A stretch of DNA of 57,330 nucleotides, from the IMG/VR virus record IMGVR_UViG_3300027833_001471, positions 1 through 57,330 of that record; one strand, written 5' to 3'. Below are positions 7,177 through 44,808 of the stretch, piece by piece. The notes under the pieces were generated by a model that saw only the letters and a program-made list of their open reading frames with translations, was not told the DNA's origin and did no database searches. Source of the DNA: a virus. Its lineage: Duplodnaviria > Caudoviricetes. The position numbers and the translations under genes are program-made. How positions within the stretch are numbered: the stretch's first letter is position 1; every line of letters begins with the position of its first letter.

Positions 7177-7692
7177 GTGGCTGATGTTTTGATGTTAAAT
7201 GCTGATGGTCAACCAGTCAGTTATCTACCACTTAGTACCATTAAATGGAAAGAAGCAATCATGTACATGTGGCACGATAAGTGTACTGTATTAGATTGGT
7301 ACGACGATTGGGTTGTAAGATCACCATCGTGGGAAACCAAAGTTCCATCTGTTATCATATTAAAAGATTATGTTCGCAAGAAAACCCAAGTGCGGTTCTC
7401 TAAAAATAACGTTTATCTAAGAGACTTGTATACTTGTCTGTATTGTGAACAGCACGTCAGTCGTTCCATGGCAACACTTGATCACGTCATACCACTTAGC
7501 TTGGGTGGCAAAACTACATGGGAAAACATCGCTACTGCGTGTAATAAATGTAATGGTATTAAAGCAAACAGGACAAATATGAAGCCAGTATATGTACCAT
7601 ACCGCCCTGGTTATTACGAGTTAGTTCGTAAGAAAAAACAATTCGAGATCGAAGCTACGCATCCTTCTTGGGAAAAGTGGTTGACAAGCTAA
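7177..7692 (+). CDS. HNH endonuclease (McrA-like)
   Basis: RDLYTCLYC, TLDHVIPLSLGG, WENIATACNKCN; GTG start with GAGGA RBS. Confidence 0.9.
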   Translation: MADVLMLNADGQPVSYLPLSTIKWKEAIMYMWHDKCTVLDWYDDWVVRSPSWETKVPSVIILKDYVRKKTQVRFSKNNVYLRDLYTCLYCEQHVSRSMATLDHVIPLSLGGKTTWENIATACNKCNGIKANRTNMKPVYVPYRPGYYELVRKKKQFEIEATHPSWEKWLTS

Positions 7693-7709
7693 ACGAATCA
7701 TAGTATTGG
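7681..7709 (+). promoter_or_regulatory. sigma70-like promoter with CGAATCA (GANTC) in the spacer
   Basis: TTGACA 7681-7686, 17 bp, TATTGG. Confidence 0.55.
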
Positions 7710-7738
7710 TTGTTCATCAACTATGAAAGGACGATGTT

Positions 7739-8140
7739 ATGACCTTCACCTATTGCGACGATTTAATCTCCGACTTCCACAAAGATGTGTATGGTTACCG
7801 CCCACGTGAAAGTTTTTGGAATGAATGGGAAACCCTTACCCCAACCCAAAAGCAAACAATTTGGGATGAGTATGATCGTGTCAGTGAACTTCAAGTGATT
7901 GAAACCAAAGCGCAAGAAGAGCGTGACGTTGCTAAGTTTGAAGATCGTGTTCAAGATGTTATCAATATCGGCGCGGGTAATCGTAAGACTGCCTTGAAGT
8001 GGATCGCTGATAGCGAAACTTTCTACCACGGACAAGATGTTGAGCATTTTGTGTGGCAACAAGGTATCCTTTTCACAGGATATGGCAAACAACTAATCAA
8101 AGATTTATTAGAAGTTGTTAAGTACAAGGAGTACGCATAA
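7739..8140 (+). CDS. conserved phage hypothetical protein
   Basis: ISDFHKDVYGYRPR motif recalled from marine T4-like phages; AAAGGA RBS. Confidence 0.75.
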   Translation: MTFTYCDDLISDFHKDVYGYRPRESFWNEWETLTPTQKQTIWDEYDRVSELQVIETKAQEERDVAKFEDRVQDVINIGAGNRKTALKWIADSETFYHGQDVEHFVWQQGILFTGYGKQLIKDLLEVVKYKEYA

Positions 8141-8340
8141 TGGAAGTTAAAGTATATAAGCATAAAATTGATCTGAATACAGTACACACTTTTGGGTCTT
8201 ATGGGTGCAACCTATACACGCAAGATGGAGAGTTCGTTGAGGCTCGTGTGTTCCATATGATGTCAGGTCAGATGTTCCACAATGAAATTCGTGAGATCGC
8301 TCAGTTTGAAAAGCTACGAGTGGAGTCTCTAGCTTACTAA
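8140..8340 (+). CDS. hypothetical protein
   Basis: TAATG coupling, AAGGAG RBS. Confidence 0.7.
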   Translation: MEVKVYKHKIDLNTVHTFGSYGCNLYTQDGEFVEARVFHMMSGQMFHNEIREIAQFEKLRVESLAY

Positions 8341-8343
8341 AAC

Positions 8344-8372
8344 TTGACAAATCGCACTTTTTGTGGTATCAT
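8344..8372 (+). promoter_or_regulatory. sigma70-like promoter TTGACA-17-TATCAT
   Basis: Consensus match upstream of the ABC-GNAT/hem genes. Confidence 0.65.
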
Positions 8373-8485
8373 AAATTAATAGGTTCTAGTAATGGAATAG
8401 GTAATATGATAGATAAAGCTAATACTATAGGAGACTTGATTATTAATTATTTAAGATTTATATCTCCTTATGATAAGGATAAACA

Positions 8486-9559
8486 ATGAAGGTTACAGTT
8501 GTTCAAGATGACATTACATCTGAGATTAGTCGTATTATGGACTATGAGTTTGATGGTACTACTACGTTCTATCCTCATGAGTTCAGTGCTATTGATCGTG
8601 AGACTACGCTTAAAGACTTTGGTGTTGGTTTGATTGTGGGACCTTCTGGTTCTGGTAAGACAACTTTACTTAAAGAGTTTGGTCAAGAGGTTGAACCTGT
8701 TTGGGATGGTGACAAATCTATTGCTTCTCATTTCAAGGATATTGATGATGTGCAAGATCGTTTAGGTGCTGTTGGGTTTAACAGTATCCCTTCTTGGTTG
8801 CGTCCTTATCATGTTCTTTCCAATGGTGAACAGTTTCGTGCTAGGTTGGCTAGACAGTTAGATAGTAATATCGTTGTTGATGAGTTCACATCTGTTATTG
8901 ACAGAGACGTTGCTAAGAGTTGTTCTAATGCTATTAGTCGTTACGTTAAAAGAAACAATTTAAAGAATATTGTATTTTCATCTTGTCATTATGACATCAT
9001 TGAGTGGTTGCAACCAGATTGGGTTTTTGACACTCATACTGGTAAGCTGACCACAAGGGGGTATCATCGGCCAGACATTGTTTTGGAAATCTTACCTTGC
9101 ACCAGAGACATCTGGACGATCTTCAGCGACCACCACTATCTCGACGGAAACATTCACTCAGGTGCATCATGTTGGATTGCAGTCTGGAACGACAGACTTG
9201 TCGGATTTCTTTCTAGCTTAAGCATGCCTTCTGGCAGTTTGAAGAATGCTTGGCGAGGTCATCGTACCGTCGTTTTGCCAGAGTTTCAAGGTTTGGGGAT
9301 TGGTGCTAGAATGACAGAAGCTATGGGAGAATTACACTTAATAGAAGGTAAAAGATATTTTACAAAAACGGCTCACCCTAGATTGGGAGAGTTTCGGAAT
9401 AATTCTGATAAATGGCGTGGTACATCTAAGAATGGCGTCGCACGTTTAGATTACAATACCAATGACAGTACCTTTGGTGGGTTTGCTGGTGGCTTACAAA
9501 AACATATGAACAGAATGTGCTATTCGCACGAGTATATCGGACTTGCTTCTAAAGCATAA
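8486..9559 (+). CDS. ABC-type ATPase fused to a GNAT acetyltransferase domain
   Basis: GPSGSGKT, LSNGEQFR, VVDEF; C-terminal VVLPEFQGLGIG acetyl-CoA motif. Confidence 0.88.
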   Translation: MKVTVVQDDITSEISRIMDYEFDGTTTFYPHEFSAIDRETTLKDFGVGLIVGPSGSGKTTLLKEFGQEVEPVWDGDKSIASHFKDIDDVQDRLGAVGFNSIPSWLRPYHVLSNGEQFRARLARQLDSNIVVDEFTSVIDRDVAKSCSNAISRYVKRNNLKNIVFSSCHYDIIEWLQPDWVFDTHTGKLTTRGYHRPDIVLEILPCTRDIWTIFSDHHYLDGNIHSGASCWIAVWNDRLVGFLSSLSMPSGSLKNAWRGHRTVVLPEFQGLGIGARMTEAMGELHLIEGKRYFTKTAHPRLGEFRNNSDKWRGTSKNGVARLDYNTNDSTFGGFAGGLQKHMNRMCYSHEYIGLASKA

Positions 9560-9595
9560 ATAATTGACCAACTAAGTTTTTGGAGCAAAGCTAAT

Positions 9596-10573
9596 ATGAA
9601 CGAAAAATTTACAAACGCAATTAACCGTGTCGAACAATCGTGTCCACCTATTTGGATGATGCGTCAAGCAGGTCGATACCAGAGTTCCTACATGCAACTC
9701 AAAGAACAATATAACTTTATGCAAATGTGTAAACTTCCGCAAATAGCGGCTAAGGTTGCTATGTTGCCTATTGATGAATTTGATTTTGATGTTGCTATCT
9801 TGTTTAGTGACATTCTTTGGCATGTCGAAGGATTGGGTCTTCCATTGGCGTTTGATCCTAGCCCAAAGTTTGAATTTCATTTATCCGAAGAAAATTACAA
9901 GAACCACATGTGTATTGAGACAGCAATGGAACACATAAACTTCCAAAAGGTTGCATTGGAAACCACAAGAGATATGTTGCCCAGTAGAAAAAGTTTGATT
10001 GGGTTTGTTGGCGGTCCTTGGAGTCTTCTTAACTATGCTTTAGGAGATAATAAGGTATCACTTGAGTTCAAAACGATGTATTTGAATGATGTTATTATTC
10101 CTCTTATGGCTAGAAGTATCAGAGCGCAGAAGTTAGCAGGTGCTGAGGTAGTCATGATCTTTGACAGTGGTTTGCATAATATGTCTAAAATATATTATGA
10201 GAACAAGTATCTCCCAATGATGGAACAGTTATCCGCAATCGGAAAAGTGGGTTACTACACACGTGATTTGCCTAATGGTTCTTTACCTAAAGTTAAGAAA
10301 ATGGAATGGGCTGGTATTGGTATCGACTCCACCCAAGACTTGGTAAAAACTTTGAAGACACATACCAATGGGTTTGTCCAAGGCAATTTTGACGAACAGC
10401 ATATGTTATTGGATACTAAACTTTATCATTATGAATTAGATAAATGGTTAGAAAGTTTGGATGGTGTTGACACCACTGGTTGGGTATGTGGATTGGGTCA
10501 TGGTATTCACAAACACACTCCAACAGATCACATAAAATACTTTATTAATCAAGTAAGGGATAAGTTTGAATAA
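9596..10573 (+). CDS. hemE: uroporphyrinogen decarboxylase
   Basis: PPIWMMRQAGRY signature, AILFSDIL, IGFVGGPWS, GLGHGI. Confidence 0.95.
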   Translation: MNEKFTNAINRVEQSCPPIWMMRQAGRYQSSYMQLKEQYNFMQMCKLPQIAAKVAMLPIDEFDFDVAILFSDILWHVEGLGLPLAFDPSPKFEFHLSEENYKNHMCIETAMEHINFQKVALETTRDMLPSRKSLIGFVGGPWSLLNYALGDNKVSLEFKTMYLNDVIIPLMARSIRAQKLAGAEVVMIFDSGLHNMSKIYYENKYLPMMEQLSAIGKVGYYTRDLPNGSLPKVKKMEWAGIGIDSTQDLVKTLKTHTNGFVQGNFDEQHMLLDTKLYHYELDKWLESLDGVDTTGWVCGLGHGIHKHTPTDHIKYFINQVRDKFE

Positions 10574-11370
10574 TGTTTGACGATTATGCGGCTTGGTTTA
10601 AAACCTTGCAGAATGATATATGTGACACCGTAGAAGACATTGAATGGGATACTTGTTATAACATGGAAGAGCATAAGAGTCCGACCAAAGAAGGTTGGAC
10701 TCAAATGCATAAAACGATCAGAGGCGATGTAATTGAAAAAGGTACTGTTAATTTCAGTAAAATCAATTCGTCGTTCGATCCTAAGTTCGCAAGTGAAATA
10801 CCTGGGACTGAAGAAAACAATGATTACCAAGCAACTGGTATTAGCGTTGTTCTGCATCCAAAAAACCCCCACGTACCAGCGATGCACTTTAATACACGAT
10901 ACATCAAGACATCAACCAAGGAATGGTTTGGTGGTGGAATGGATGTTACGCCCTGCTTGCCTTTCAATACGGAAGCTTATCATGACGTATTGAAAGAGAT
11001 GTGTGATAAACACGACGAAGCTTATTACCCAAAGTTTAAACAAGCCTGTGATGAATACTTCTTTATTCCACATCGTAATGAAATGCGTGGTGTTGGTGGG
11101 ATATTTTTTGAGTACCACGATCCAAAAGATATGAGTTTTGACTTCGTTAAGGATGTGGGACGAACATTTAATTATCTAGTCAAACATATTACAAATGATT
11201 TGTCTGACCTTTCCTATACTGATGAAGCTAGAAGAATACTAGAAGTTAAGCGTGGACGCTATGTAGAGTTCAATCTGTTGTACGATAGAGGAACAAGATT
11301 TGGTTTCAAAACAGGGGGCAACATGGAAGCTATTCTCATGACACTTCCCCCAAAAGTTAGGTGGGAATAA
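10573..11370 (+). CDS. hemF: oxygen-dependent coproporphyrinogen III oxidase
   Basis: HPKNPHVPAMHFNTRY, WFGGGMD, RGVGGIFF, RGRYVEFNLLYDRGTRFG. Confidence 0.96.
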   Translation: MFDDYAAWFKTLQNDICDTVEDIEWDTCYNMEEHKSPTKEGWTQMHKTIRGDVIEKGTVNFSKINSSFDPKFASEIPGTEENNDYQATGISVVLHPKNPHVPAMHFNTRYIKTSTKEWFGGGMDVTPCLPFNTEAYHDVLKEMCDKHDEAYYPKFKQACDEYFFIPHRNEMRGVGGIFFEYHDPKDMSFDFVKDVGRTFNYLVKHITNDLSDLSYTDEARRILEVKRGRYVEFNLLYDRGTRFGFKTGGNMEAILMTLPPKVRWE

Positions 11371-12107
11371 TGAAGATAGGCGTAAGAGGTAGTGACCTTG
11401 CATTAGCATATGCTGAGAGAGCCTGTAAGGAGCTACAGTGCGACACAGAGGTAGTAATCATCCAAACTGATGGTGATTTGAACCCTAACACTCCTATCCA
11501 CGAGATAGGTGGTAAGGGTGTATTCTGTAATGCTATTGAATATGCCTTAGTGCAAGGTATCATTGATGTTGGTGTTCATAGCTTAAAAGACATGCCCGGT
11601 GATATCGAACACCCTGATCTTGTTGTTGCATCTTATCTAAAGCGCAATAACCCACACGATGTATTGATAGGTAATGTGTTTGAAGGTTGTGTGATTGGTA
11701 CAAGCAGTCCACGAAGAAAAGAACAAATACAAGAATTGTATGGTCATTTGAACGTAGAGATAAAACCTATTAGAGGAAACATAGACACACGTTTACAGAA
11801 ACTTGACGATAAAGAGTACGATGCAATTATCTTAGCAAAAGCTGGTTTAGATGCTCTTGATATATCTAGGATATGCAAACCCTTAGATATCATACCAGCA
11901 GTTGGTCAAGGAACTACTGTATTGCAGTGTAGAAAAGATGATGTTGAAACTATAGAACTTGTTTCTAAAACAAATGATGATCTAACCATGAGACAGTCTT
12001 TCTTAGAAAGAGCATTGCTAAAAGGTATTATGGGAGACTGTAGTACATCAGTTGCCGCCTTTGCTTATGATGATGCGCCCATTAAAATGGATGTTGTTTA
12101 TTATTGA
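11370..12107 (+). CDS. hemC: hydroxymethylbilane synthase (porphobilinogen deaminase), short C-terminus
   Basis: IGVRGSDLA, GGKGVF, VHSLKDMP, GTSSPRR, IRGNIDTRL, PAVGQG, cofactor Cys in GDCS. Confidence 0.93.
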   Translation: MKIGVRGSDLALAYAERACKELQCDTEVVIIQTDGDLNPNTPIHEIGGKGVFCNAIEYALVQGIIDVGVHSLKDMPGDIEHPDLVVASYLKRNNPHDVLIGNVFEGCVIGTSSPRRKEQIQELYGHLNVEIKPIRGNIDTRLQKLDDKEYDAIILAKAGLDALDISRICKPLDIIPAVGQGTTVLQCRKDDVETIELVSKTNDDLTMRQSFLERALLKGIMGDCSTSVAAFAYDDAPIKMDVVYY

Positions 12108-12132
12108 CAACTTCATGACTTCATGATATGAT
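12104..12132 (+). promoter_or_regulatory. sigma70-like promoter TTGACA-17-TATGAT
   Basis: Consensus match overlapping the hemC stop. Confidence 0.65.
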
Positions 12133-12183
12133 ATAGAGATCATAAACGTAATATATGATTTGTAAGTCATAAGGAAGATTGTC

Positions 12184-12819
12184 ATGAGCGTTACGGATTA
12201 CACCGTATCACCAATAACTATACAAGAAGCTACACCGTTTGTTGTTGATTGGCATTACTCCAAGAATACGAATGGCTTGGCTACTCGTTTCTGTTTCGGT
12301 CTTTTCGATGGAACTGAAATGATTGGTGTTATGATATATGCGTATCTAGGCATGGCAAGTGTTTGGAAGAAGTATGGGGAAGTTGAAACAGACGTTGTTG
12401 AATTAAGACGATTGTGCTGTATTGATGACACCCCTAAGAACACGGAGAGTTACTTCATAGCTCAGACTATTAATTGGTTGAGGCAGAATACAGATTGTAA
12501 AGTTGTTGTCAGTTATGCTGACAGTATGCAAGGGCATGTAGGCACTATATACTATGCATCAAACTTTTACTATTTGGGTATGACTGCAAAGGGTAGATCG
12601 ATAAGGATTAAAGGTAATGATCGTCTGTATCACGAAAAGACAATACGGACTTACTACACACCTAAGAATGGCGAGAGGCGTCTTAAACCATACGCACAAA
12701 AGATTAAGGAACAGCTAGAGAACGGCGAAGCAGAATACGTTCATAGTAAAGGCAAACACATATTCGTATATCCTCTCAATAAGAAGGAAAGACGGAAGTA
12801 TAAAATGAAAGCAACTTAG
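12184..12819 (+). CDS. Mom-like GNAT-fold DNA modification protein
   Basis: WHYS, VELRRLC, KNTESYFI, VVSYAD...GHVGTIYYASNF motifs of the Mu Mom family. Confidence 0.8.
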   Translation: MSVTDYTVSPITIQEATPFVVDWHYSKNTNGLATRFCFGLFDGTEMIGVMIYAYLGMASVWKKYGEVETDVVELRRLCCIDDTPKNTESYFIAQTINWLRQNTDCKVVVSYADSMQGHVGTIYYASNFYYLGMTAKGRSIRIKGNDRLYHEKTIRTYYTPKNGERRLKPYAQKIKEQLENGEAEYVHSKGKHIFVYPLNKKERRKYKMKAT

Positions 12820-12820
12820 A

Positions 12821-14413
12821 ATGACTGATGTGAAACTTATGCTAGGCAATTGCTTAGATCGACTTAAAGACCTTGATGATAATTCTGTGGATAGTATCGT
12901 TACTGATCCACCTTATGGAATTGATTTCATGGGTAAGAAATGGGATTACGATGTTCCGTCCACAGAGATTTGGGAACAAGCAATGAGAGTTCTCAAACCA
13001 GGTGGTTATCTTCTAGCATTTGCTGGTACACGTACACAGCATCGCATGGCAGTTCGTATTGAAGATGCTGGTTTCGAAATCAGGGATATGATCGCTTGGG
13101 TATATGGTAGTGGATTTCCTAAGTCACATAATGTTAGTAAGGCTATTGATAAGCATAGTGAGAAACCAGAAACAAATGAAAAAATAATTGAATTGAAAAC
13201 CCAACTTATTGAAATGTTTGATCAGTGTGTGTTGACCAGAAAGAAAATAGATGAAAAATGTGGTTTTCGTGCTAGTAACTATTTGACACTTCCTTCTGAA
13301 ACTAAAAAATATGATCCATGGGTTAATATACTACCGTCACATGACAAATGGAAAATAATAAAAGAAGTTATTGGCGCTAAAGATGATTTGGATATTGATA
13401 CCTTGTATAATGATATTGAACGTGAAGTAATTGGAACACAGACAAAAGCAAGAAGCACAAGTGGTAAATCAGCATTACCCACAGTTGGTGGTGATGTCAT
13501 ATACGAAACTTGGACAATAACTGCGCCCGCTACTGATGCCGCAAAACAATGGGAAGGTTGGGGTACAGCACTCAAACCTGCCCTAGAACCTATTACAGTT
13601 GCTAGAAAACCATTAGGGGAAAAGACCGTTGCCGCTAATGTTTTGAAGTATGGCACAGGTGGTATCAATATTGATGCTAGTCGTATTCCTACTAATCCTG
13701 ATGTTGATGATGCACGACTTGGTGGGAATGGTTCTTGGAAAACGGATGGAATGGCGGTAAATGCGTATGGTAAGTTCGCAGGAACCGAAAACACTTCATC
13801 TGAGCAAGGTCGTTTCCCTACCAATCTTATTCACGATGGTTCTGAGGAAGTCACGAGTGGATTTCCTGATACTAAGGGTAGGTCAAATAAGGGATCAAGC
13901 AGTTCAACCAAAGTGGATGGCGGGGGTGTGGTATATGGAAAATACACTGGAGAACTGGAATGTGGCACATCCGCTAACCGTGACCCTATCGGTTTTCAAG
14001 AAGGTTCTGCCGCACGTTTCTTCTATGTACCAAAGACATCTAAGAAAGATCGTAATAATGGGCTAGAGAACTTTACACCAAAGGCTACAGCATCATCTGA
14101 GTTCAGACCAAATCATGCAGAGAAAGCAGACAACGGTGAAGATGGCAATCCATATGGACGTTGGACGCCTACACAGAACAACCACCCTACTGTGAAGCCC
14201 ACAGACCTTATGCGCTACCTTGTGACTATGGTGACGCCAAAAGGTGGCACAACCCTTGATCCGTTCATGGGTAGTGGTTCTACAGGACGTGGCGCAAAGT
14301 TAGGTGGGTTCAACTTTATCGGCATTGAGTTAGATGAAAACTACTTGGAGATTGCAAAGGCTAGGATTGATGCCATATCTACTGAGGTTACGCTAGAAGA
14401 ATTTTTTAAGTAA
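12821..14413 (+). CDS. site-specific DNA methyltransferase (N6-A/N4-C, beta class) with internal insertion
   Basis: VTDPPYG, HPTVKP, LDPFMGSGST, GIELD. Confidence 0.92.
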   Translation: MTDVKLMLGNCLDRLKDLDDNSVDSIVTDPPYGIDFMGKKWDYDVPSTEIWEQAMRVLKPGGYLLAFAGTRTQHRMAVRIEDAGFEIRDMIAWVYGSGFPKSHNVSKAIDKHSEKPETNEKIIELKTQLIEMFDQCVLTRKKIDEKCGFRASNYLTLPSETKKYDPWVNILPSHDKWKIIKEVIGAKDDLDIDTLYNDIEREVIGTQTKARSTSGKSALPTVGGDVIYETWTITAPATDAAKQWEGWGTALKPALEPITVARKPLGEKTVAANVLKYGTGGINIDASRIPTNPDVDDARLGGNGSWKTDGMAVNAYGKFAGTENTSSEQGRFPTNLIHDGSEEVTSGFPDTKGRSNKGSSSSTKVDGGGVVYGKYTGELECGTSANRDPIGFQEGSAARFFYVPKTSKKDRNNGLENFTPKATASSEFRPNHAEKADNGEDGNPYGRWTPTQNNHPTVKPTDLMRYLVTMVTPKGGTTLDPFMGSGSTGRGAKLGGFNFIGIELDENYLEIAKARIDAISTEVTLEEFFK

Positions 14414-14420: not shown

Positions 14421-14449
14421 TTGACACGAAAAAAGAATCGTTCTATACT
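14421..14449 (+). promoter_or_regulatory. sigma70-like promoter TTGACA-17-TATACT with GAATC in the spacer
   Basis: Consensus match. Confidence 0.7.
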
Positions 14450-14476: not shown

Positions 14477-14773
14477 ATGAATAAATGGATATATGATTGT
14501 TGGAATGTAGTAATGGATCACGAAAAGAATCCACTAAGCAACATTCCTGACTTTGCTACACGACATATGATTATGCAAGTTCTTGCATGGATGTGGTGTA
14601 TTACATTTGCTATTATTGTAGGTAGCATGTGGGCAGGAGTAATTAGTATGATGTTACATGCATTAGTATTAGCCGCAATTGCAGTAACAGTAGCAACATT
14701 TGAAACAGCGAAGCGTAAACCAAATGTATTTGGGGCATACAATGGTCGTGCCAATGGGGGAGAACATGAGTAA
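14477..14773 (+). CDS. membrane hypothetical protein (2 TM)
   Basis: Hydrophobic helices; AAAGGA RBS. Confidence 0.75.
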   Translation: MNKWIYDCWNVVMDHEKNPLSNIPDFATRHMIMQVLAWMWCITFAIIVGSMWAGVISMMLHALVLAAIAVTVATFETAKRKPNVFGAYNGRANGGEHE

Positions 14774-16996: not shown

Positions 16997-17350
16997 TTAC
17001 TTCAATCCTTTTAATTTAGCTTTCATCATTTCGTGGGCATCTCTAGGTGTCTCCGTGGCTTCTGGCGATAGTCTGGGTTCGGTTTCCCCCCTGCCAAGAG
17101 CAACACTGGATTGTACCTGTTTTCTGCCACGACTTTCTTTTCGATAGCTACCCTCAATACCAAAATATCCGACTTCTTTTTTGAGCCTTTCAAGTCTTCG
17201 CCTGAGATGGAAAACTTTTTCATTTAAGTCTATCCCTATGCTATTTAGTTGTTGCTCTGAAAATTCCGTCCCAATATGGCGGTAAGTCTTGGGTTGCCAT
17301 GTAATTACAACGTTCAATCCAAATATCGTAATATTCATCCATTTTGCCAT
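16997..17350 (-). CDS. hypothetical protein overlapping the cyclase 3' end
   Basis: ORF track; start uncertain. Confidence 0.5.
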   Translation of the reverse strand: MAKWMNITIFGLNVVITWQPKTYRHIGTEFSEQQLNSIGIDLNEKVFHLRRRLERLKKEVGYFGIEGSYRKESRGRKQVQSSVALGRGETEPRLSPEATETPRDAHEMMKAKLKGLK

Positions 17351-19292: not shown

Positions 19293-19405
19293 TCTTCTTT
19301 ACACTCGCATTTATAGCAGACGTCATTCACACACTCTTTGCAATCTGGACTGTAACAGTGACAACCATGACCGCATTTCTTACAGGTTCTTGGTGTTCCT
19401 TGCAT
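19289..19405 (-). CDS. Cys-rich metallothionein-like micro-protein (38 aa)
   Basis: MQGTPRTCKKCGHGCHCYSPDCKECVNDVCYKCECKEE; GGAG RBS; ATGA overlap with the cyclase. Confidence 0.7.
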   Translation of the reverse strand: MQGTPRTCKKCGHGCHCYSPDCKECVNDVCYKCECKEE

Positions 19406-19431
19406 GTATTAACTCCATATAAAGATACATG

Positions 19432-19439
19432 TATTTATA
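19432..19439 (-). promoter_or_regulatory. T4-type late promoter TATAAATA
   Basis: Exact match upstream of the micro-ORF and cyclase. Confidence 0.7.
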
Positions 19440-21222: not shown

Positions 21223-21230
21223 TTATGATA

Positions 21231-23566: not shown

Positions 23567-23579
23567 TTACTTCCCTTTG

Positions 23580-27337: not shown

Positions 27338-27340
27338 ATT

Positions 27341-28964: not shown

Positions 28965-28974
28965 GGAATATATT

Positions 28975-33068: not shown

Positions 33069-33708
33069 AAATGCATTAAACGCATGTGAAGATATTTACA
33101 GAGAATCGCAATACAATAAAGACGTAGATTTGTATAGAAGCTACGACATTATGAACTCTGTCAACGAAACGCAGTTGAAAAGCAAGCAGTGGCTAGTTGA
33201 TACGCTAGTGCCTTTCCTTACAGATGAGCAATTCGAATGGTGTCCTCTACAGGATATTATTATTCTTGGTGGGTGGTACGGCATGAATGGCATGTTACTT
33301 CGCCAAAAGATAGACAACGATATTAATATTTGGAATGTCGATACAGATCAATGGTGTGAACATTACACAAACATGCTACAAGATGGCAACGATGACTATA
33401 AAAACAACCATTCGATCACTGACGATGCCTTAGACTACTTTTTCACAAGGGCTGATGCATACCAACTTATTATCAATACAAGTTGTGAGCATATGGAACC
33501 AGATGATATACGATTGATGCTTGGCGCGAAAACGCGCGAGACTATGATTTGTTTTCAAAGCAATAATTATCATTCTATCCAAAGCCATATCAATACACAC
33601 AATAGCTTAGATGAGTTTGTCGAGTCGTTAGACTTGGCTGGTGTTTTGTGGAAAGGTGAGAAGAAAGTAAATGAGGAATGCGATAGGTATATGGTGATAG
33701 GCGTATGA
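33043..33708 (+). CDS. class I SAM-dependent methyltransferase-like protein
   Basis: ILGGWYG, INTSCEHM, FQSNNY. Confidence 0.6.
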   Translation: MSYLETIYKNALNACEDIYRESQYNKDVDLYRSYDIMNSVNETQLKSKQWLVDTLVPFLTDEQFEWCPLQDIIILGGWYGMNGMLLRQKIDNDINIWNVDTDQWCEHYTNMLQDGNDDYKNNHSITDDALDYFFTRADAYQLIINTSCEHMEPDDIRLMLGAKTRETMICFQSNNYHSIQSHINTHNSLDEFVESLDLAGVLWKGEKKVNEECDRYMVIGV

Positions 33709-36719: not shown

Positions 36720-37288
36720 GGCAATATATCCGCAACTAAATGAATACGATCAATATCACTTGCATTTAATGCCGTGTGGTTACCCTTATCAGTATGAGCA
36801 AACGTCCAAAGTTCTAGTGGCAAATGCTTTACTTCGTCTTCAATGATCATAAGACAAGCTTCATCTGTTTGTATTGGGTAATGCAATCTTGGGATTGGAT
36901 CGATATGCCAATTCATACAAGTGTATGGTTTTGATTTTAATAGACGAACTCTGCCAATTTCATATTCAGTTTCCATAGCTTTATACATAGCTTCGAATAC
37001 TGTACCTTTAAAAACATCACACAACTCCCAGTCATATACTGACTTTGGAGACATTGGTATTCTAACATCTCCCTGTGGTGTAAGCCTGATGAAGAAGTCT
37101 GACTTACCTTTATCTGCGAAGTAACCAGCGCCAAAGCTGTAATCATCCGTATAGTCGGGTGCGGCGTTCAGACATATCTGTTGGGCGCTGTGTGGATTGG
37201 ATGGTTGGAACCATTCTAAATTTAAGCTGTCTAATTCTTCTAGCAGACCTTTAAACTGGGGCAACTTTATGTTATCATAATAAGTCAA
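36716..37288 (-). CDS. Fe(II)/2OG oxygenase, aspartyl/asparaginyl beta-hydroxylase-like
   Basis: GRVRLL, WHID (HxD), RLHYPI, HTALN, RIHLV; TTG start probable. Confidence 0.75.
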   Translation of the reverse strand: MTYYDNIKLPQFKGLLEELDSLNLEWFQPSNPHSAQQICLNAAPDYTDDYSFGAGYFADKGKSDFFIRLTPQGDVRIPMSPKSVYDWELCDVFKGTVFEAMYKAMETEYEIGRVRLLKSKPYTCMNWHIDPIPRLHYPIQTDEACLMIIEDEVKHLPLELWTFAHTDKGNHTALNASDIDRIHLVADILP

Positions 37289-39326
37289 TGTTGAACATCT
37301 CACTTTCTTTGCCTTCAATCGCTTTCAATACTTCATCGTAACTCTTGTCGAATATCGCTAGTTTGAGGAATATCCTATCATCATTTGAGAAGACGCTGTG
37401 CATCTGTTGTACGTTTAGTAAAGCACATTCATAGTAAACATCAATGTCTTCATCCCACGTAATAGGTCCCGATCCATTTAAAATTATATTTATAGCAGTG
37501 GCTGTTCCGTGATCACGATGAGCCGCTAAATGACTACCAGCTTCTTGGTGATAATATCGTGGGAATACTTCACACCCAACAATAGATGCTACTTGCCATG
37601 CAACCTCGTTAGCAACTTCACAGTCTTCAACATCATCAAATCTAATCACTTGTAACATTTCAAGTGTCTTCGTTTCCGTTTCGTTAGAGGCAGTAAATGC
37701 TTTAGATTTATCTTTATGCTCGTGGTATTCTGTTATCAAAGCATCTTTCAGTTCTTGAGTAACTGGTAGATTTTTCATATATTTTATGTTGGGTTCTTTC
37801 TCATCAACACCCAAGAACTTCACAACCTTTGAATAGTAACTCTTTTGCAGATATTGACGCGCCCTTCTTTTAATCATAGGGTTAGTGAACAACTCTGTGA
37901 ACGTCATTTTACGTAGCTCTTCGAATCCAAATCCAAGACATTGGTAGAACATCAAGAAAAATGTGGACACTTTTATCTCATCAAAATATCCTTCTTGCAA
38001 GTCTTTTACGTACTCAACAACCTCATCACTTGTCCAGTATTGGTTAGACCACTTGTTTTCCATATTAGATTGACGATCAATGGTATAACCAAAGTAATCT
38101 GATCTTTTGGATAATTCGGATGCAGTACCAAGTTCAAGAGGGCTAAAAGAATAAGCATCAAACAAATCCTTTCTTTCAAACAATTCCTTAGTCCATTCAT
38201 CCATTGTTTCTCTATTGTCGTGTGGCAATCCAGCAATGAAACTTCCATACACACTTAACGATCCACCGAATACTTCTTTTGACTTTTCAATCGTTTCAAA
38301 CACTTTCTCTTTTGGACAGCCTTTGCCAATTGATTTAGCTGACTCATAATTAAGAGATTCGACACCAAGAAACCACGCGCATACATTAATTCTTTTAAGT
38401 AAATCTAACTGTTGTGGGAATGCCGCTATAAGATCGATGCGAATGAAAGAAGAGAACTGCAACTTGACTGGAAGGTTCAGTTCTTCTATAGCCTCAGCAA
38501 TAGCCTCTAGTTTTACTGTTTGTTCGTTAAACGTGTCATCAATAATAACGTACTTCGTAGTACCATACAGATCATAGTTCTGCTGTAGTTCAGCCTTAAT
38601 GCATTCTTTATTCCTAAGAAAAGAATTGTCACCTTTCTTTTTACCTATAAGGGGATATGCACAGAACTTACATTTGAATATACAACCCCTACCAAACTCA
38701 ATGCCCATAGCATCTTCAGCATTCCAAAAATCTTCTGGGACGTAGTTTACTCTTTCGTTTCTAAAATCAAACAACGCACCTTTCTGGTCAAAATCAATAA
38801 CGTATGGGTAGTCTCCATATTCCTTGTTGTATTTAAGTTCTATTCCATTCTTGAGATGTTCTGTGATGTGAAGTGCTGGTGCTTCGCCCATGCCAACAAC
38901 AAAGTAATCCACACTTTCGCGTACTTCAGATGCGCGATAATAGGTCATCATACCACCATATACTGTCTTGACACCCTTCGAACGGATGTAGTCAGTCATA
39001 TCTTTTACTTCTTCATCACTGATAGGCCAACGCCAAAGAATGTTTTGCCTTGCACTATCACGAGTGTGGCGCTTGTTATAAACATCCTTACTCTTTCGCA
39101 TGAATAGAGAAGAACTAAACCCAACCCATAATGTGTTGTCACCAATTAGTTTGTCAAGGATTTCGTTTATGTTTCCTTTTTGCATGAAGTGGGTAAAGTT
39201 GTTCAATACAAATACTGAGTAGCCTTGATTTCTTAAATAGGACGCAATTTTATAACCACCAACAGCACGAGCCACGTTGAATACAGGGTCACTCCCCTCA
39301 GTCATAATGATAATGTCGTATGTCAT
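37275..39326 (-). CDS. B12-binding-type radical SAM protein with C-terminal Fe/2OG-like domain
   Basis: GRGCIFKCKFC, DDTFN, GVES, FIAGLP; C-terminal AHRD...MHSV...R. Confidence 0.82.
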   Translation of the reverse strand: MTYDIIIMTEGSDPVFNVARAVGGYKIASYLRNQGYSVFVLNNFTHFMQKGNINEILDKLIGDNTLWVGFSSSLFMRKSKDVYNKRHTRDSARQNILWRWPISDEEVKDMTDYIRSKGVKTVYGGMMTYYRASEVRESVDYFVVGMGEAPALHITEHLKNGIELKYNKEYGDYPYVIDFDQKGALFDFRNERVNYVPEDFWNAEDAMGIEFGRGCIFKCKFCAYPLIGKKKGDNSFLRNKECIKAELQQNYDLYGTTKYVIIDDTFNEQTVKLEAIAEAIEELNLPVKLQFSSFIRIDLIAAFPQQLDLLKRINVCAWFLGVESLNYESAKSIGKGCPKEKVFETIEKSKEVFGGSLSVYGSFIAGLPHDNRETMDEWTKELFERKDLFDAYSFSPLELGTASELSKRSDYFGYTIDRQSNMENKWSNQYWTSDEVVEYVKDLQEGYFDEIKVSTFFLMFYQCLGFGFEELRKMTFTELFTNPMIKRRARQYLQKSYYSKVVKFLGVDEKEPNIKYMKNLPVTQELKDALITEYHEHKDKSKAFTASNETETKTLEMLQVIRFDDVEDCEVANEVAWQVASIVGCEVFPRYYHQEAGSHLAAHRDHGTATAINIILNGSGPITWDEDIDVYYECALLNVQQMHSVFSNDDRIFLKLAIFDKSYDEVLKAIEGKESEMFNIDLL

Positions 39327-39327: not shown

Positions 39328-40110
39328 CTATCCCTTACGCGGTCTATTAAAGTCTACTGTAGTTCCATCTCTACCTTTGTAAAAGAATATGCCATGTTTA
39401 GCGTCGAATGAAACTTTATCTTTAGTATCGTACCAATCGTCAAACACACATATATCACCTTCGACAAGCAAGTTGCCATCTCCAACAGAAATCCAACTAC
39501 AATTAATTATGTCCCCAAGAATAGTAGTGTTGGGTGGTGTAATTGATTTTGCATATTCTACTTCAGCCATGTTAGTAAACCTATGCATAATTGCATTAGG
39601 TCCTATTTCAGTCATGCCCCATATAAGTATAACTTCACACCCTCTTCCAACAAACGCTTCTATTATATCATATGTAACAGGCTCTGATCCAACTAGAAAA
39701 ATGTGTCCCTCAAGATCAAGAGTTTTAAATGTTTTAGTCTTCATAACAGCCTTGGCTTGTTTTGGGGTCAAGTGGCTGTGTGTGTATTTAGCTACATTCC
39801 TAACATAATCGTATGGATTAAACCTAACGAGATCAACTGTCGCACCTACGGAGAGAGCGGGTATTGTTTGTGCAAATAACCCCCCTGCCTTTTCTGGGCT
39901 TAAACATGTGTATATTACACTCGAATTGGTTATACGTTGTACATAACAAGCGTTCTTTGCATCTATTGCTATCTTTGATGGTGTTTGTTCAATTGCTTTT
40001 GGTTCACCACTTGTGCCTGACGTGTAAATGATCTTTCCATTTTCAATCACATCATCGAAGTAATTATTGTCATACTTATCATAAAACTGTCTAATCATCG
40101 AAGTAACCAA
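39328..40110 (-). CDS. compact adenylate-forming (AMP-binding) enzyme
   Basis: YTSGTSGEPK, WGMTEIGP, YDTKD, KGR. Confidence 0.82.
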   Translation of the reverse strand: MVTSMIRQFYDKYDNNYFDDVIENGKIIYTSGTSGEPKAIEQTPSKIAIDAKNACYVQRITNSSVIYTCLSPEKAGGLFAQTIPALSVGATVDLVRFNPYDYVRNVAKYTHSHLTPKQAKAVMKTKTFKTLDLEGHIFLVGSEPVTYDIIEAFVGRGCEVILIWGMTEIGPNAIMHRFTNMAEVEYAKSITPPNTTILGDIINCSWISVGDGNLLVEGDICVFDDWYDTKDKVSFDAKHGIFFYKGRDGTTVDFNRPRKG

Positions 40111-41221
40111 ACTCGAATTCTTTGTCTACATATCTTAACACATGATGACCCATGAACCTTTCGGTAATTGTTTTGAACATTTCATCATCTTGATTTGCAA
40201 CATATCTTTTCAAAACATTTGTCTGTTCGATACGTTTACTTGACGTCTCTTTAGCCCAATCCCAAAACTCATTTTCGTATATAGAACCACCATGGTAGAT
40301 CAGGTTGATTAAATCTTCTACTGCACGATAGTTTAGGATACATAGTTCGTTAGCTTTATCTTGGGTAATTTCTCCACGTATGTATTGAGAATGAATTTCG
40401 GCATTCTTGACTGTCATGTAAAGAGAGTTTGCACTCATTGGTTCAAAGAACACTGCTCGGTTCCCACTCTTTAGTATTTTGCCATCAATCGTTTTCTTAC
40501 AATAATATGGTTTTAAATCAAATGTTCTAAAATTACTCCTATCATCATCTGATGCTTCCGTGATGCGAATAAGTTCATCTTCTGCTTCTTTACGTGTGCA
40601 AAACTCATTATTGTATAGGAAACCATGGGATGTTCTGTGTTGTAGTGGGATAACAAACATCCAACCATACTTGTGGGCAACGTGTTTAGTAAAGCCAAAA
40701 TCAGATGGGGTTGGATCATCGTAAACTAATGCAGAGTTTAAAACAAGGTTACACTCTTCGTAATCAGAGAAATTTGTTGGTCTGCCACGACAATCAATTA
40801 CATAATCATATTCTGTCAAGTCTTTATATTCTACGTTAGCATCAACACGTCTATAATTAGAGTACATCTTTTGTAATCTCTTCAATCCCATTTCGGCAAA
40901 ATCACGAGCATCAAAGTGAATAGCATGATAACCAGATTGGAATGGAAATATGATTTCTTTTTCGCGCCAATCAATATACTGCGTACCATACTTAGTCGTG
41001 CTGTTGAGTTCTTTTGCTTCTGTTGCGAATATGAAATCAAATGCTTGACCAATTGCAAACGTCACTTCAGACGTGGTACTTTCTCCAACCCCAAGAATGG
41101 GTTTGTTGCTATCGTAGATGTGAGTTACCTCGCAGTCAATGCCTCTGTTCTTAAAGTCTTTTAGTATACAACCAGTAGTTAAGATGCCTGCACTACCAGC
41201 ACCAAGTATTGCAATCTTCAT
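40091..41221 (-). CDS. flavin-dependent tryptophan halogenase-like protein
   Basis: GAGSAG, GVGESTT, GWMFVIPL, FFEPMSA. Confidence 0.8.
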   Translation of the reverse strand: MKIAILGAGSAGILTTGCILKDFKNRGIDCEVTHIYDSNKPILGVGESTTSEVTFAIGQAFDFIFATEAKELNSTTKYGTQYIDWREKEIIFPFQSGYHAIHFDARDFAEMGLKRLQKMYSNYRRVDANVEYKDLTEYDYVIDCRGRPTNFSDYEECNLVLNSALVYDDPTPSDFGFTKHVAHKYGWMFVIPLQHRTSHGFLYNNEFCTRKEAEDELIRITEASDDDRSNFRTFDLKPYYCKKTIDGKILKSGNRAVFFEPMSANSLYMTVKNAEIHSQYIRGEITQDKANELCILNYRAVEDLINLIYHGGSIYENEFWDWAKETSSKRIEQTNVLKRYVANQDDEMFKTITERFMGHHVLRYVDKEFEFGYFDD

Positions 41222-41730
41222 TCGTCACCCCTAACTTCAAAATATCTATCAGCATTTAATAACCAAATATTCTGATCTACCCCAAACACTTCTTCAGTGC
41301 TTACTAGGTCTACCAAACCATTTCTTTCGAGAATGTAATATAGCTTATTAAGTCTTCCCATCTTGCCACTTGCATCGTTATTTATGTTGGTTGTAATGTA
41401 TATTGGATCGTTAGTAGCATATATGACCTTTGGAAGATGGTAGTAGAACATCCAACAGTTCATATGGTTTTTGCTCAAACCCTTTGGTCTTGAGTATAAT
41501 TGACATCCTCTATATAAAGCCCTAACGCCATCTCTAAATTGATGTACACCAGATATGCCTACCATCTTGCCATCAACTGATGTCTCGAACCACACGCCAC
41601 CATCGTCAAGAGTCTTTTGGAAATTCATGACTTCTAACGAGTTGTTGTTTTTATAACCAAGTTTGTCACATTCTTCTATAAAAGTTAGAAGTTGGGGTGT
41701 CACTTCGTGTAGTTGATTAGTGCGTATCAT
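41218..41730 (-). CDS. GNAT-fold-like hypothetical protein
   Basis: DGKMVGISG...RALYRG pattern; weak. Confidence 0.45.
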   Translation of the reverse strand: MIRTNQLHEVTPQLLTFIEECDKLGYKNNNSLEVMNFQKTLDDGGVWFETSVDGKMVGISGVHQFRDGVRALYRGCQLYSRPKGLSKNHMNCWMFYYHLPKVIYATNDPIYITTNINNDASGKMGRLNKLYYILERNGLVDLVSTEEVFGVDQNIWLLNADRYFEVRGDE

Positions 41731-42974
41731 GAGAACTTGAATTCTAAATCTTTGTATACGGTAGTTGACCCAAACATCGCTGGTAATAGTTCTGGCTCTT
41801 TCGTAATCTCAAAATTGTCAAACCTATCAAGCAAGCTATTAATTATCATTTCAAGAAAGTGCTTGACAAGGAAGTCGCCAGTACAGTGGTGAGGTCCGTA
41901 AGCAAGGGTTACTGGAAGTGGTTCGTCATCTCGTTCAAGACTAAACTCTAGGGGATTTTTAAAGTATTTGGGGTCACGGTTTGCTCCATATGTATACAAA
42001 AGAATTCTACCATTTGCATCAAACTTGTATCCATGGTAATCTATGTCTTCTGTGATATCACGTATGCCACCCTTTAGTGGGGCGAGACGCATACTTTCTC
42101 TTGCAAACTTTGAGACAAGTGTTCTATCTGCTTTAATTCTCTTGACAATATCAGGATACTTGGCAAGGTTCATAGCTAGGTTCTGGTACATACTCAGAGC
42201 AAAGGTTGGAATTACAACAGTCCATAAGCTTTGGATAAACATATATCCCATCCTACGTGGGTTGTCATTGTATATCCATTGCTTGTCACTCAAGTTCTTC
42301 GTCATATTAATCATTGTATCGTCATCAACACCCTCAAGATGATAATAGCTAATAGCTTCATCTACGATACGTGCAAACATATTATAGAACTCAGTAGTTT
42401 CGGCAACTGGCTTATCGTAGTCAAAGTCTGGGTTGAAATTAGAGAAGACACCCCCAGGGCGCATCCACTCGTGAAAGCCATCCTTAACATAATCCTCTGA
42501 CACATCTAGTTCTGCCCAAGGAAATTCTATAGTCTGTATCTGAGTGTCGGTAACAATCCTACCGATGACGTCATAAGACACGAATGGTTTGTTCTTTTCT
42601 ATCTTATCGAACCATTTGTCTATATTTGACTTCAGCGCGTCAATCATAAAGCCAGAACGTCTTTTCGCCCAATTAAGGCTTTCCTTCTTCGCAAGATGAT
42701 GATGCGGACCTTCTCTTAGTGTCAATGCATAACCTGCTCTCCAAATACCACCAAGTGGTGTTGGGTCAAAAGGTGCTGGTGATGTCTTAGCTAAGCTGAA
42801 TTCTTCATTCATCTTTGAGGCTTCTTTGAGCCTATCCATTGAGAAGATTATCCAGTGTTTGTATATTGGATGCCAAAAGAAACCTCTTGGTTCGTTTTCG
42901 AAACAAAAAGTAGTGTGTTCATCCATGTTATACAGGAAATCGGGATTAACGATTTCAAAATCATTTTTTCTCAT
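41727..42974 (-). CDS. cytochrome P450
   Basis: ESMR (ExxR), ANRDPKYF, heme-ligand loop AYGPHHCTG. Confidence 0.9.
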   Translation of the reverse strand: MRKNDFEIVNPDFLYNMDEHTTFCFENEPRGFFWHPIYKHWIIFSMDRLKEASKMNEEFSLAKTSPAPFDPTPLGGIWRAGYALTLREGPHHHLAKKESLNWAKRRSGFMIDALKSNIDKWFDKIEKNKPFVSYDVIGRIVTDTQIQTIEFPWAELDVSEDYVKDGFHEWMRPGGVFSNFNPDFDYDKPVAETTEFYNMFARIVDEAISYYHLEGVDDDTMINMTKNLSDKQWIYNDNPRRMGYMFIQSLWTVVIPTFALSMYQNLAMNLAKYPDIVKRIKADRTLVSKFARESMRLAPLKGGIRDITEDIDYHGYKFDANGRILLYTYGANRDPKYFKNPLEFSLERDDEPLPVTLAYGPHHCTGDFLVKHFLEMIINSLLDRFDNFEITKEPELLPAMFGSTTVYKDLEFKFS

Positions 42975-43823: not shown

Positions 43824-43870
43824 AATTTACCTTAATTAGAATCTTATTGTATATCATAAGGGATAACCCT

Positions 43871-43940
43871 ATTATACATGACTTAGAAAGTTTGTCAAGC
43901 AAAAAGTAACTGTTGACAACAAGTATTTATAGTGTAGAAT
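43871..43940. promoter_or_regulatory. divergent promoter region: - TTGACA-16-TATAAT (43871-43898), - late TATAAATA (43924-43931), + TTGACA-16-TAGAAT (43913-43940)
   Basis: Motif matches. Confidence 0.6.
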
Positions 43941-43941
43941 A

Positions 43942-44262
43942 GTGTTTATGAATGCTTATGATGTAATGATACAAAAGATAGTTCGCAATGCAATCTACAC
44001 AATTCGTCGTAGAGGCATGGAGTGCGAACCAGAACAGATCGAACCAATGGAGTACGATGCACTTCCTATGGGCAATGGTCTGGAACATCGTGGCTTCCTC
44101 AAAACTAAAGATGCATACATGTTTAAAGACTTGTTAGCACTAGAACTTACCATCCAATATATTGCATACCAAAAGAAGCACGATGATGATCGTATCAACG
44201 AACCACGTGTTAGTTTGAGAAAAGATGGTTTAGAAATACTTTTTTATACTCAAGGGGGTTGA
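43942..44262 (+). CDS. hypothetical protein
   Basis: ORF track; start uncertain. Confidence 0.6.
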   Translation: MFMNAYDVMIQKIVRNAIYTIRRRGMECEPEQIEPMEYDALPMGNGLEHRGFLKTKDAYMFKDLLALELTIQYIAYQKKHDDDRINEPRVSLRKDGLEILFYTQGG

Positions 44263-44287
44263 CAAGCCCGAATCAATATGACATACA
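44259..44287 (+). promoter_or_regulatory. early promoter TTGACA-CGAATCAATATG-CATACA
   Basis: Near-duplicate of the promoter at 44780. Confidence 0.7.
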
Positions 44288-44315
44288 GTATAGGTAACAA
44301 CACGAAAGAAATAAA

Positions 44316-44486
44316 ATGACACTTAATGAATTATGCGACCAGTACGATGATTTTCTTTTTGAAAACGATTTGCCTCCTATGAGTGCTGATGAGCTTTTGT
44401 TTGAACATGATCTTACACCAGAACAGTGTGATTATCTGGAACAGTTTATTGAATCATGGCATGTAGCAGAAAAGGAAGCCGCATAA
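44316..44486 (+). CDS. small acidic hypothetical protein (56 aa, ends EKEAA)
   Basis: Manual translation; TAATG coupling to the next gene. Confidence 0.7.
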   Translation: MTLNELCDQYDDFLFENDLPPMSADELLFEHDLTPEQCDYLEQFIESWHVAEKEAA

Positions 44487-44776
44487 TGGGCAAACGTGGT
44501 GAACTAAAAGACATGGATGGCTTTGAAGAAGGTGTACGTCAAAGTGCTGTTCAGTACAATGTTGTTTTGTTTCAGCCAAGAAAACCATCACTCGTTAGTG
44601 GCACTTTCAAAGATTTAGGGGAAGCCCAAACATATAGTAGAGATATGTTATCAGAACAAACAAAAGTTCGCAGTGCAATGATTTATGCAATAGATGAGTC
44701 TGATCACCATGCATTAGTTGGTACTATTACTCGTAATATGAAATGGAACTTAGTAATACCAGAGGCGCACAAATAA
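44486..44776 (+). CDS. hypothetical protein
   Basis: ATG 44486 with AAAGGA RBS. Confidence 0.7.
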   Translation: MGKRGELKDMDGFEEGVRQSAVQYNVVLFQPRKPSLVSGTFKDLGEAQTYSRDMLSEQTKVRSAMIYAIDESDHHALVGTITRNMKWNLVIPEAHK

Positions 44777-44779
44777 GTC

Positions 44780-44808
44780 TTGACACCATCGAATCAATAT
44801 GGCATAAA
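44780..44808 (+). promoter_or_regulatory. early promoter TTGACA-CGAATCAATATG-CATAAA
   Basis: Near-duplicate of the promoter at 44259. Confidence 0.7.

Follow-up and report, generated by a model that had tools for sequence, protein, structure and literature searches.

The DNA analysed in the present study (hereafter the window, 57,330 bases) is one whole virus record of IMG/VR, linear, estimated to be 26% complete and with a G+C content of 39%. By its gene content the source is an uncultured marine T4-like phage: T4-type topoisomerase II subunits, gp32, UvsX and a gp41-type helicase are encoded, the core proteins share at most 47–57% identity with those of cultured phages, and three tRNAs and a permuted transfer-messenger RNA (tmRNA) are present. 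The study concerns a group of predicted promoters that carry the word GANTC, mostly as part of an asymmetric 7-bp box, between their -35 and -10 elements. GcrA is an alphaproteobacterial sigma70 cofactor, which binds GANTC that has been N6-methylated by CcrM and aids promoter opening by RNA polymerase. An initial annotation of the window had listed eight such promoters and proposed that they are controlled by this host system.

All eight sites were confirmed. Each consists of TTGACA, a 17-nt spacer with GAATC or GATTC, and a -10-like hexamer, and CGAATCA or TGATTCG is found, as had been reported, in four of them (7695, 25118, 44270 and 44791). An exact TTGACA followed after 16–17 nt by TAnnnn or CAnnnn, upstream of an open reading frame (ORF), identifies them as predicted sigma70-type promoters. 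They are listed here together with a ninth candidate and a promoter that has GANTC downstream of the spacer only (N17 stands for a spacer of 17 nt; handles beginning with L or G designate related viral sequences).

7681–7709, plus strand: box promoter, TTGACA-N17-TATTGG, with a CGAATCA box (GANTC 7695–7699), before ORF 7739–8140, which matches phrog_21968 (function unknown).
14421–14449, plus strand: box promoter, TTGACA-N17-TATACT, with an AGAATCG box (GANTC 14435–14439), before ORF 14477–14773.
25102–25148, plus strand: box promoter, TTGACA-N17-TATAAC, with a TGATTCG box (25118–25122), before ORF 25167–25535; conserved in L001 and L006.
25144–25148, plus strand: second box of the 25102 promoter, AGAATCA, at about +10.
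25516–25572, plus strand: promoter without a spacer box, TTGACA-N17-TACAAA, with downstream GANTC at 25557 and 25568 (about +9 and +20); conserved in L001.
25849–25883, plus strand: hairpin and box promoter, TTGACA-N17-TATAAC, with a TGATTCT box (25873–25877) that abuts the -10.
26365–26393, plus strand: box promoter, TTGACA-N17-TATACA, with a TGATTCT box (26381–26385), before ORF 26424–26648.
26943–26989, plus strand: box promoter, TTGACA-N17-TATAAA, with AGATTCG (26959–26963) in the spacer and AGAATCA (26985–26989) at about +10.
44259–44287, plus strand: box promoter, TTGACA-N17-CATACA with TGn, and a CGAATCA box (44270–44274); conserved in L021.
44780–44808, plus strand: box promoter, TTGACA-N17-CATAAA with TGn, and a CGAATCA box (44791–44795); conserved in L021 and L022.
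3496–3523, plus strand: ninth candidate, TTGACA-N16-TATGCT, with an AGAATCA box (3511–3515), inside the gene for the topoisomerase medium subunit.

The ninth candidate is weak, because coding constraint may account for its conservation. At 25849–25867 a terminator-like hairpin (GGGGG/CCCCC stem, T run) has as its loop the -35 TTGACA of the next promoter, which gives a compact stop-and-restart cassette; the same arrangement is found in L001, L006 and the related record G006. In the L001 version of the 26943 promoter both boxes and the -10 are retained, and divergence is seen in the upstream part of the spacer.

To count these sites, promoters were collected by a rule that is blind to GANTC (exact TTGACA, a spacer of 16–18 nt, a -10-like hexamer, and an ORF start 30–160 nt downstream). 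GANTC lay wholly inside the spacer in nine of 19 window promoters, or in 7 of 17 when a stricter -10 was applied. Shuffling of the spacers gave an expectation of 0.87 (0.78 with the stricter -10), in agreement with the rough figure of about one in the initial annotation, and the shuffle control that had been suggested there showed clear enrichment, since the observed count was reached in none of 5000 shuffles. Among 256 gapped 5-mers GANTC held rank 1 in the window spacers, and a second promoter filter gave a similar result (9/21; 0/5000 shuffles). A hand count placed 12 of the 13 non-tRNA intergenic GAWTC sites of the window no more than about 25 nt from an inferred start of a TTGACA promoter. 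A standard promoter scan was discarded: it requires a T at -7, the last base of the -10 hexamer (-7T), misses every TTGACA promoter at 25.1–26.9 kb, and returned 9 sites against 10.9 in shuffles. G006, which is 81–92% identical to the window across the shared part and reaches 61 kb past the window start, holds a second cluster in 60,976 non-overlapping bases, with GANTC in the spacer of 7/15 promoters against a null expectation of 0.57 (0/5000).

One explanation of such a repeated word is that it has no function, having been inherited with duplicated promoter cassettes and having survived by chance. Clear paralogues do exist among the promoters (44259/44780 and the 25855-type cassettes). With the 7-mer masked, however, the box is carried in about 22 distinct spacer contexts, and it is near-invariant while the spacer around it diverges, the entropy of the 7-mer being 0–0.30 bit against 0.54–1.17 bit for the remaining spacer (four position classes). 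The replication in the non-overlapping part of G006 and the avoidance of the word elsewhere in the genome also speak against mere inheritance, which is considered very improbable.

The identity of the word was examined by a k-mer scan with no word given in advance. It covered the spacers in 261 promoter families, drawn from the window and 127 viral loci, and the same loci supplied the background. The top 7-mer was CGAATCA (6 occurrences against 0.26 expected; p = 3.4e-7; 2341 words tested), the top 6-mer was CGAATC (9 against 0.72), and GAATC was second among the 5-mers. Other enriched words (ACACT, ACACTA) trace to promoters without a box, where they belong to the stretch with the TG immediately before the -10. 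In Caulobacter the GcrA consensus is described as TGATTCG, with the broader form YGAKTCK (Haakonsen 2015, PMC4647560). CGAATCA is the reverse complement of TGATTCG, the published GcrA optimum. In the window 8/9 spacer sites fit YGAKTCK, the sole exception being AGATTCG at 26959–26963, compared with 23/76 of the other GANTC sites (Fisher p = 0.001) and 8/40 of the other GAWTC sites (p = 0.0002). When the window and its relatives were pooled, 45 of 289 unique gene-upstream promoter cores had GANTC in the spacer. All 45 sites were GAWTC (30 GAATC at offsets 9–15, and 15 GATTC at offsets 16 and 18); 42/45 fit YGAKTCK and 18/45 the strict YGAKTCG. Since CcrM itself requires GANTC alone, this preference for particular flanks points to a reader with the taste of GcrA. 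The same design in a different sequence is found in other IMG/VR relatives, of which one group has TTGACA-ttctnttt[A/C]GAATC[A/G]GT-TATATT, often followed by aGAATCaacaaa, and further relatives have CGAATC[A/G] at 9 to 15 nt from the start of TTGACA.

The remaining host-type promoters of the window form a second class without a spacer box:

12104–12132, plus strand: box-free example, TTGACA-N14-TGA-TATGAT (extended -10), upstream of the Mom-like and methylase genes.
43839–43898, minus strand: box-free consensus promoter, TTGACA-N16-TATAAT, with GATTC at about +24 that is kept in three relatives with variable flanks.
79, 2003, 4420, 8344, 43913, 46883, 48741, 50357, 51413 and 53961: further box-free promoters.

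Promoters of the box-free class precede the topoisomerase, Mom-like/methylase, gp32 and helicase genes and the tmRNA. Their -10 usually ends in T, a TG is often present 14 nt past the -35, and they resemble the TTGACT-N14-TGA-TATAAT promoters of Pelagibacter phage HTVC008M. The TG was fixed at 14 nt past TTGACA, with a spacer of 16 or 17 nt, at 79, 2003, 8344, 12104, 43913, 46883, 50357 and, on the minus strand, 43898; because of this fixed distance it forms a TGn in front of some -10 hexamers and abuts others. As a clean divider of the two classes TGn was rejected, the association being weak (pooled, 9/45 box against 90/244 box-free promoters; p = 0.04) and 44259 and 44780 carrying both box and TGn.

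The box class precedes runs of short ORFs without known function. Ten ORFs downstream of box promoters had no Pfam match above the curated cut-off, and three match PHROGs of unknown function. The initial annotation had described these genes as short, early and hypothetical, of which the word early follows from the promoter type only. It had also held that box promoters mostly lack -7T, which is statistically real and at the same time dependent on register and subfamily. In the N17 register, by hand count, -7T is absent from 7/8 window box promoters against 2/14 GANTC-free ones; in the pooled set it is absent from 26/45 box and 49/244 box-free promoters, and so present in 19/45 against 195/244 (p = 1e-6). 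The dependence arises because 6/8 window box promoters read TAnnnT two bases further on (N19 register) and because L005-type relatives have a near-consensus TTGACA-N17-TATATT with -7T present. Many alphaproteobacterial promoters are described as lacking -7T and using CarD (Henry 2020, PMC7703639), and the proposed link to CarD hinges on the choice of -10 register.

A further GANTC within 45 nt downstream was more frequent in the box class (15/45 against 32/244 pooled box-free promoters; p = 0.002). In some cases GANTC falls in the gap that separates a Shine-Dalgarno sequence from its start codon (window 23783 and 25568, and the 5' leaders of L118/L119, AAGGATTC..ATG and GAGAATCACATG); such sites may be by-products of the ribosome-binding site and not promoter elements.

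Whether a GcrA-based reading is reasonable depends on the host. Two features of the window bear on this:

46879–47229, plus strand: alphaproteobacterial-type two-piece tmRNA, permuted according to ARAGORN, with the tag ANENFAPSGFALAA.
17241–24294, minus strand: CHASE2-cyclase and curli-like module, including a FecR-like protein, syntenic with HTVC008M 6909–13795 (gp011–gp019).

The tmRNA scored 107.2 bits with the Rfam model alpha_tmRNA (RF01849; gathering score 50) over model positions 1–355. A degenerate pattern of its T-arm matched ten genome contigs, all of them from Alphaproteobacteria (10/10), and the exact 32-nt T-arm had no genome match; no closest host lineage can be named, because the conserved parts of the tmRNA alone align. 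A search of a protein atlas with hemE gave no usable host taxa. The tmRNA has its own box-free TTGACA promoter at 46883, and L024 retains this promoter and the start of the gene.

Matches to HTVC008M were found for 13 of the 98 window ORFs. The CsgF/CsgG-type genes (window 20089–24294, HTVC008M 6909–10657) are 40–52% identical, the cyclase is 34% identical, and the G+C content is 39% in the window against 33% in HTVC008M. A curli operon is described for all pelagimyophage groups except the fonsimyophages (Zaragoza-Solas, PMC7029224), and the window combines T4-like core genes (gp32, UvsX, gp41) with a curli-like CsgF/CsgG operon. The tmRNA and the synteny with a Pelagibacter phage make an alphaproteobacterial host likely; on this evidence the host is most likely an alphaproteobacterium, and the phage resembles the pelagimyophages, which would make SAR11 a candidate host.

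The genome-wide use of GANTC points in the same direction. The window contains 90 sites, where base composition predicts 202 and a third-order estimate 163. At 0.44 of expectation, GANTC has the lowest value among the 16 strand-collapsed words that share its structure. The ratio of observed to expected was 0.40 in the separate part of G006, and Aeromonas phage 31 (first 50 kb) showed no depletion, at 1.09. Intergenic DNA (6.3% of the window) holds 16/90 GANTC sites against 52/906 sites of five control words. Depletion of GANTC of at least two-fold, with an intergenic excess, has been described for CcrM-bearing alphaproteobacteria including SAR11 (Gonzalez 2014, PMC3973325), and the biases of the window match the signature given in that account. 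In the whole HTVC008M genome (L142–L144) 43 sites were found against 441 expected (0.10), the lowest value of the 16 words.

The initial annotation had suggested a search for gcrA and ccrM genes in the phage. No ORF of the GcrA family was detected in the window or in five related records, which are fragments of 16–59% completeness, and the methylase that is encoded is not an orthologue of CcrM:

12821–14413, plus strand: N6/N4 DNA methyltransferase, 530 aa, with an insert of about 340 aa.

This protein scored 76.7 bits with the CcrM equivalog model against a cut-off of 830, which the six-frame control with the CcrM model also failed to reach, full-length CcrM-like genes scoring 583–631 bits. 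It aligns to CcrM (6PBD) at residues 7–101 and 451–519 only, which are the catalytic and SAM-binding motifs. A Mom-like modification gene lies directly upstream of it (both genes together, window 12184–14413, plus strand), and the relative G010 has two methylase-like frames side by side (269 and 443 aa). The phage methylase gene is absent from the 80,000 bases of G006 that were searched, where box promoters are present. Because of this, host CcrM would be the simpler source of methylation, if methylation matters. Both proteins occur among candidate hosts: in a marine alphaproteobacterial metagenome-assembled genome (MAG) of 30% G+C, GcrA scored 138 bits and a CcrM-like gene of full length 588 bits. 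GcrA was also found in 38/41 genomes from a sample of the order to which a Ca. Pelagibacter MAG belongs, and in 2/5 alphaproteobacterial genomes reached through the tmRNA pattern. The use of SAR11 as a natural negative control was dropped in view of the 38/41 genomes.

Box positions relative to the transcription start were inferred by placing the -10 hexamer at -12 to -7. The spacer boxes of the window are then centred at -15, -17 (four), -19 (two) and -22 (two), and the downstream boxes at +9, +10, +10, +20 and +24. The published distribution of GcrA boxes lies at -20 +/- 1 and -30 +/- 2 in the spacer and extends downstream from +2/+5 to +30. At the -10 region sites are reported to be nearly absent (Haakonsen 2015, PMC4647560). 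By this comparison the downstream boxes appear to fit the GcrA positions, the spacer boxes would fit them loosely, and the boxes abutting the -10 would fit poorly unless the -10 register is shifted.

Variable positions (-15 to -24 and +9 to +24) and the use of both orientations would also suit a factor that need do no more than overlap the footprint of the polymerase. The box could then be the operator of another protein by which the first promoters are tuned or switched off. Such a protein might be made or injected by the phage, or might be supplied by the host and be distinct from GcrA, and methylation would be dispensable. Several box promoters are near consensus, so that repression rather than activation is possible, and ORF 44486–44776 gives a sub-threshold hint of a helix-turn-helix (17 bits; cut-off 24.6). 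A box-binding factor of this kind is the main rival explanation, and we regard it as unlikely: it leaves unexplained why the top 7-mer equals the GcrA optimum and why GANTC is depleted throughout the genome as in CcrM-bearing hosts, dimeric repressors do not usually bind one asymmetric site of 7 bp, and no candidate protein was identified.

The boxes at the -10 raise a different question, namely whether methylation has a direct effect that does not involve GcrA. Polymerase binding or melting could be altered by N6-methyladenine located in the spacer or at the start, as happens at Dam-sensitive promoters of mobile elements, and promoter strength would then follow the hemi- or fully methylated state that replication leaves behind. 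The boxes abutting the -10 (seven unique promoters) sit at the sigma/melting region, where GcrA boxes are rare, and L005-type relatives carry GAATC between the -10 and the start, as such an effect would allow. Flanks that fit YGAKTCK at 42/45 sites, with N always A or T, nevertheless argue for a reader with the preference of GcrA, CcrM needing no more than GANTC, and a purely direct effect is judged improbable.

Returning to GcrA, the reading that the box promoters are GcrA-box promoters, read via host CcrM methylation and GcrA, is by a small measure the probable one. In this scheme one class of promoters would be self-sufficient. It has TTGACA, a -10 with a final T and, in many cases, TG at a distance of 14 nt, and it precedes the replication and DNA-metabolism genes and the tmRNA. 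The spacer of the other class contains TGATTC[G/T], an asymmetric 7-bp box that may face either way, and a further copy is frequently present 10–25 nt past the start. Host holoenzyme loaded with GcrA would recognize the methylated box and boost these otherwise weaker promoters, and expression of the first phage genes would depend on whether the phage DNA is methylated and on the availability of host GcrA. The presence of the box in about half of the host-type promoters suggests that the first phage genes are wired into the epigenetic circuit of the host. Methylation, GcrA binding, activation and timing at the box promoters are what we infer from the DNA sequence, and an 'epigenetic timer' of infection, as the initial annotation called it, is speculation. 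The host class, the GANTC signature, the identity of the top 7-mer with the GcrA optimum and the constraint on the box support the CcrM/GcrA idea put forward there. No support came from the search for gcrA in the window and the five related fragments or from the methylase, which is not a CcrM orthologue, and the positions fit in part only.

Several further observations weigh against control by GcrA. The consensus YGAKTCK comes from Caulobacter only. The inferred box centres, at -15 to -24 with a mode at -17/-18, agree only in part with the narrow published rule of -20 +/- 1 or -30 +/- 2, and in seven unique promoters the box abuts the -10, where Haakonsen et al. are reported to have found nearly no sites. 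The L005-type promoters, being near consensus, have no obvious need of an activator. A published GcrA-matrix scan of other alphaproteobacterial phages is reported to have shown no positional asymmetry (PMC9437464). When the first 100 loci were pooled, most of them distant, the intergenic share of GANTC sites (5.7%) was close to the intergenic share of bases (5.3%), which is no enrichment; the effect belongs to the lineage of the window and a few others. Among the TTGAC[AT] promoter-like sites of HTVC008M none had GANTC in the spacer (0/22), and the feature is therefore lineage-specific although GcrA is common in the order of the Ca. Pelagibacter MAG. The p-values given above overstate independence, because the promoters are partly paralogous.

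If the GcrA reading is nevertheless followed to its end, a widespread lytic lineage of marine T4-like phages would use the CcrM-GcrA module of the host as the specificity key of its immediate-early promoters. Only methylated phage DNA that meets GcrA-loaded polymerase would fire the take-over genes, and their expression would be licensed by the cell-cycle state of the host and fade as unmethylated progeny DNA builds up. These would be the first phage promoters to be read by way of a sigma70 cofactor that depends on methylation. We put this forward tentatively, as a possibility that is more doubtful than the presence of GcrA-type promoters as such.

The stretch 24300–28300 of the window or near relatives of it were detected in marine DNA runs of at least nine studies (a possible source run was excluded), an occurrence which indicates that the lineage is common in seawater, and they made up small shares of metatranscriptome runs. 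Contigs of relatives spanned parts of 24.4–28.3 kb in four RNA runs from three studies; neither start nor strand can be read from these contigs, and carry-over of DNA is possible. No named phage was matched by megablast with window 24000–34000, or by tblastn with the radical-SAM protein and the 319-aa protein of the window.

The window is also dense in auxiliary genes (9596–10573, 49669–50355, 40091–41221, 41727–42974, 30194–32454 and 37275–39326). The set comprises uroporphyrinogen decarboxylase, a ferredoxin-dependent bilin reductase, tryptophan halogenase, a P450 and three radical-SAM proteins, and the CHASE2-cyclase belongs to it as well. Two of these, the P450 and the radical-SAM protein of 683 aa, lack a PHROG family. 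A protein of 319 aa rich in W and M (45272–46231, plus strand) had no PHROG match and a sub-threshold hint of PHO4; relatives of it are encoded in 597 IMG/VR stretches, and the 80 that were kept are 81–97% identical to it, on contigs of 28–42% G+C.

No report of GcrA-type boxes as a phage promoter element was found in the literature searched, supplementary files and most subscription journals being outside its scope. To our knowledge, GcrA/CcrM control is known for bacterial cell-cycle genes only. If the GcrA reading is true, lytic phages would be able to read the epigenetic and cell-cycle state of the host directly at transcription initiation, and the box would serve as a sequence marker by which alphaproteobacterial hosts could be predicted for marine phages that are uncultured. 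It would also help to account for the purging of GANTC from these phage genomes despite the near-absence of restriction systems in SAR11 that has been described (PMC7029224).

Among the closest known systems are the GcrA/CcrM promoters of Caulobacter crescentus, for example PcsM and PmipZ, which, as described, likewise combine a sigma70 core with GANTC in YGAKTCK context in the spacer or shortly downstream (Haakonsen 2015, PMC4647560; Wu 2023, PMC9976885). They sometimes have two boxes, and their site is asymmetric, of monomer type and usable in either orientation. Unlike these, the promoters of the window belong to a lytic phage, have a consensus TTGACA at -35, and have boxes with inferred centres mostly at -17/-18, and as close as -15, instead of -20 +/- 1. 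Sites for a host cell-cycle regulator in phage regulatory regions are also known from the 'lytic deferment' phages with CtrA boxes, where the regulator is CtrA and the site TTAA-N7-TTAA according to the account cited (Mascolo 2022, PMC9437464). The GcrA module is engaged by other alphaproteobacterial phages, namely the phiCbK-like phages and Agrobacterium phage Atu_ph08; these are reported to carry the GcrA protein, proposed to act on host genes, whereas the phage of the window carries DNA sites (PMC3556154, PMC6630229). Pelagibacter phage HTVC008M and the pelagimyophages (PMC7029224) are related in a different way: T4-like replication genes, a curli-like and cyclase module, strong avoidance of GANTC and TTGAC[AT]-N14-TGA-TATAAT promoters resembling the box-free class are shared with the window. 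HTVC008M differs from the window in having no spacer GANTC and no topoisomerase match.

Two older systems are similar in principle. The early and middle promoters of T4 also form two classes for the host polymerase, used with or without a helper. In T4 middle promoters the MotA box replaces the -35, whereas the box class of the window keeps the -35 and has its extra element in the spacer. The Dam-sensitive promoters of IS10, P1 and Mu mom likewise use methylation as a timing cue in mobile DNA; theirs is Dam methylation of GATC, and here it would be the putative methylation of GANTC by CcrM.

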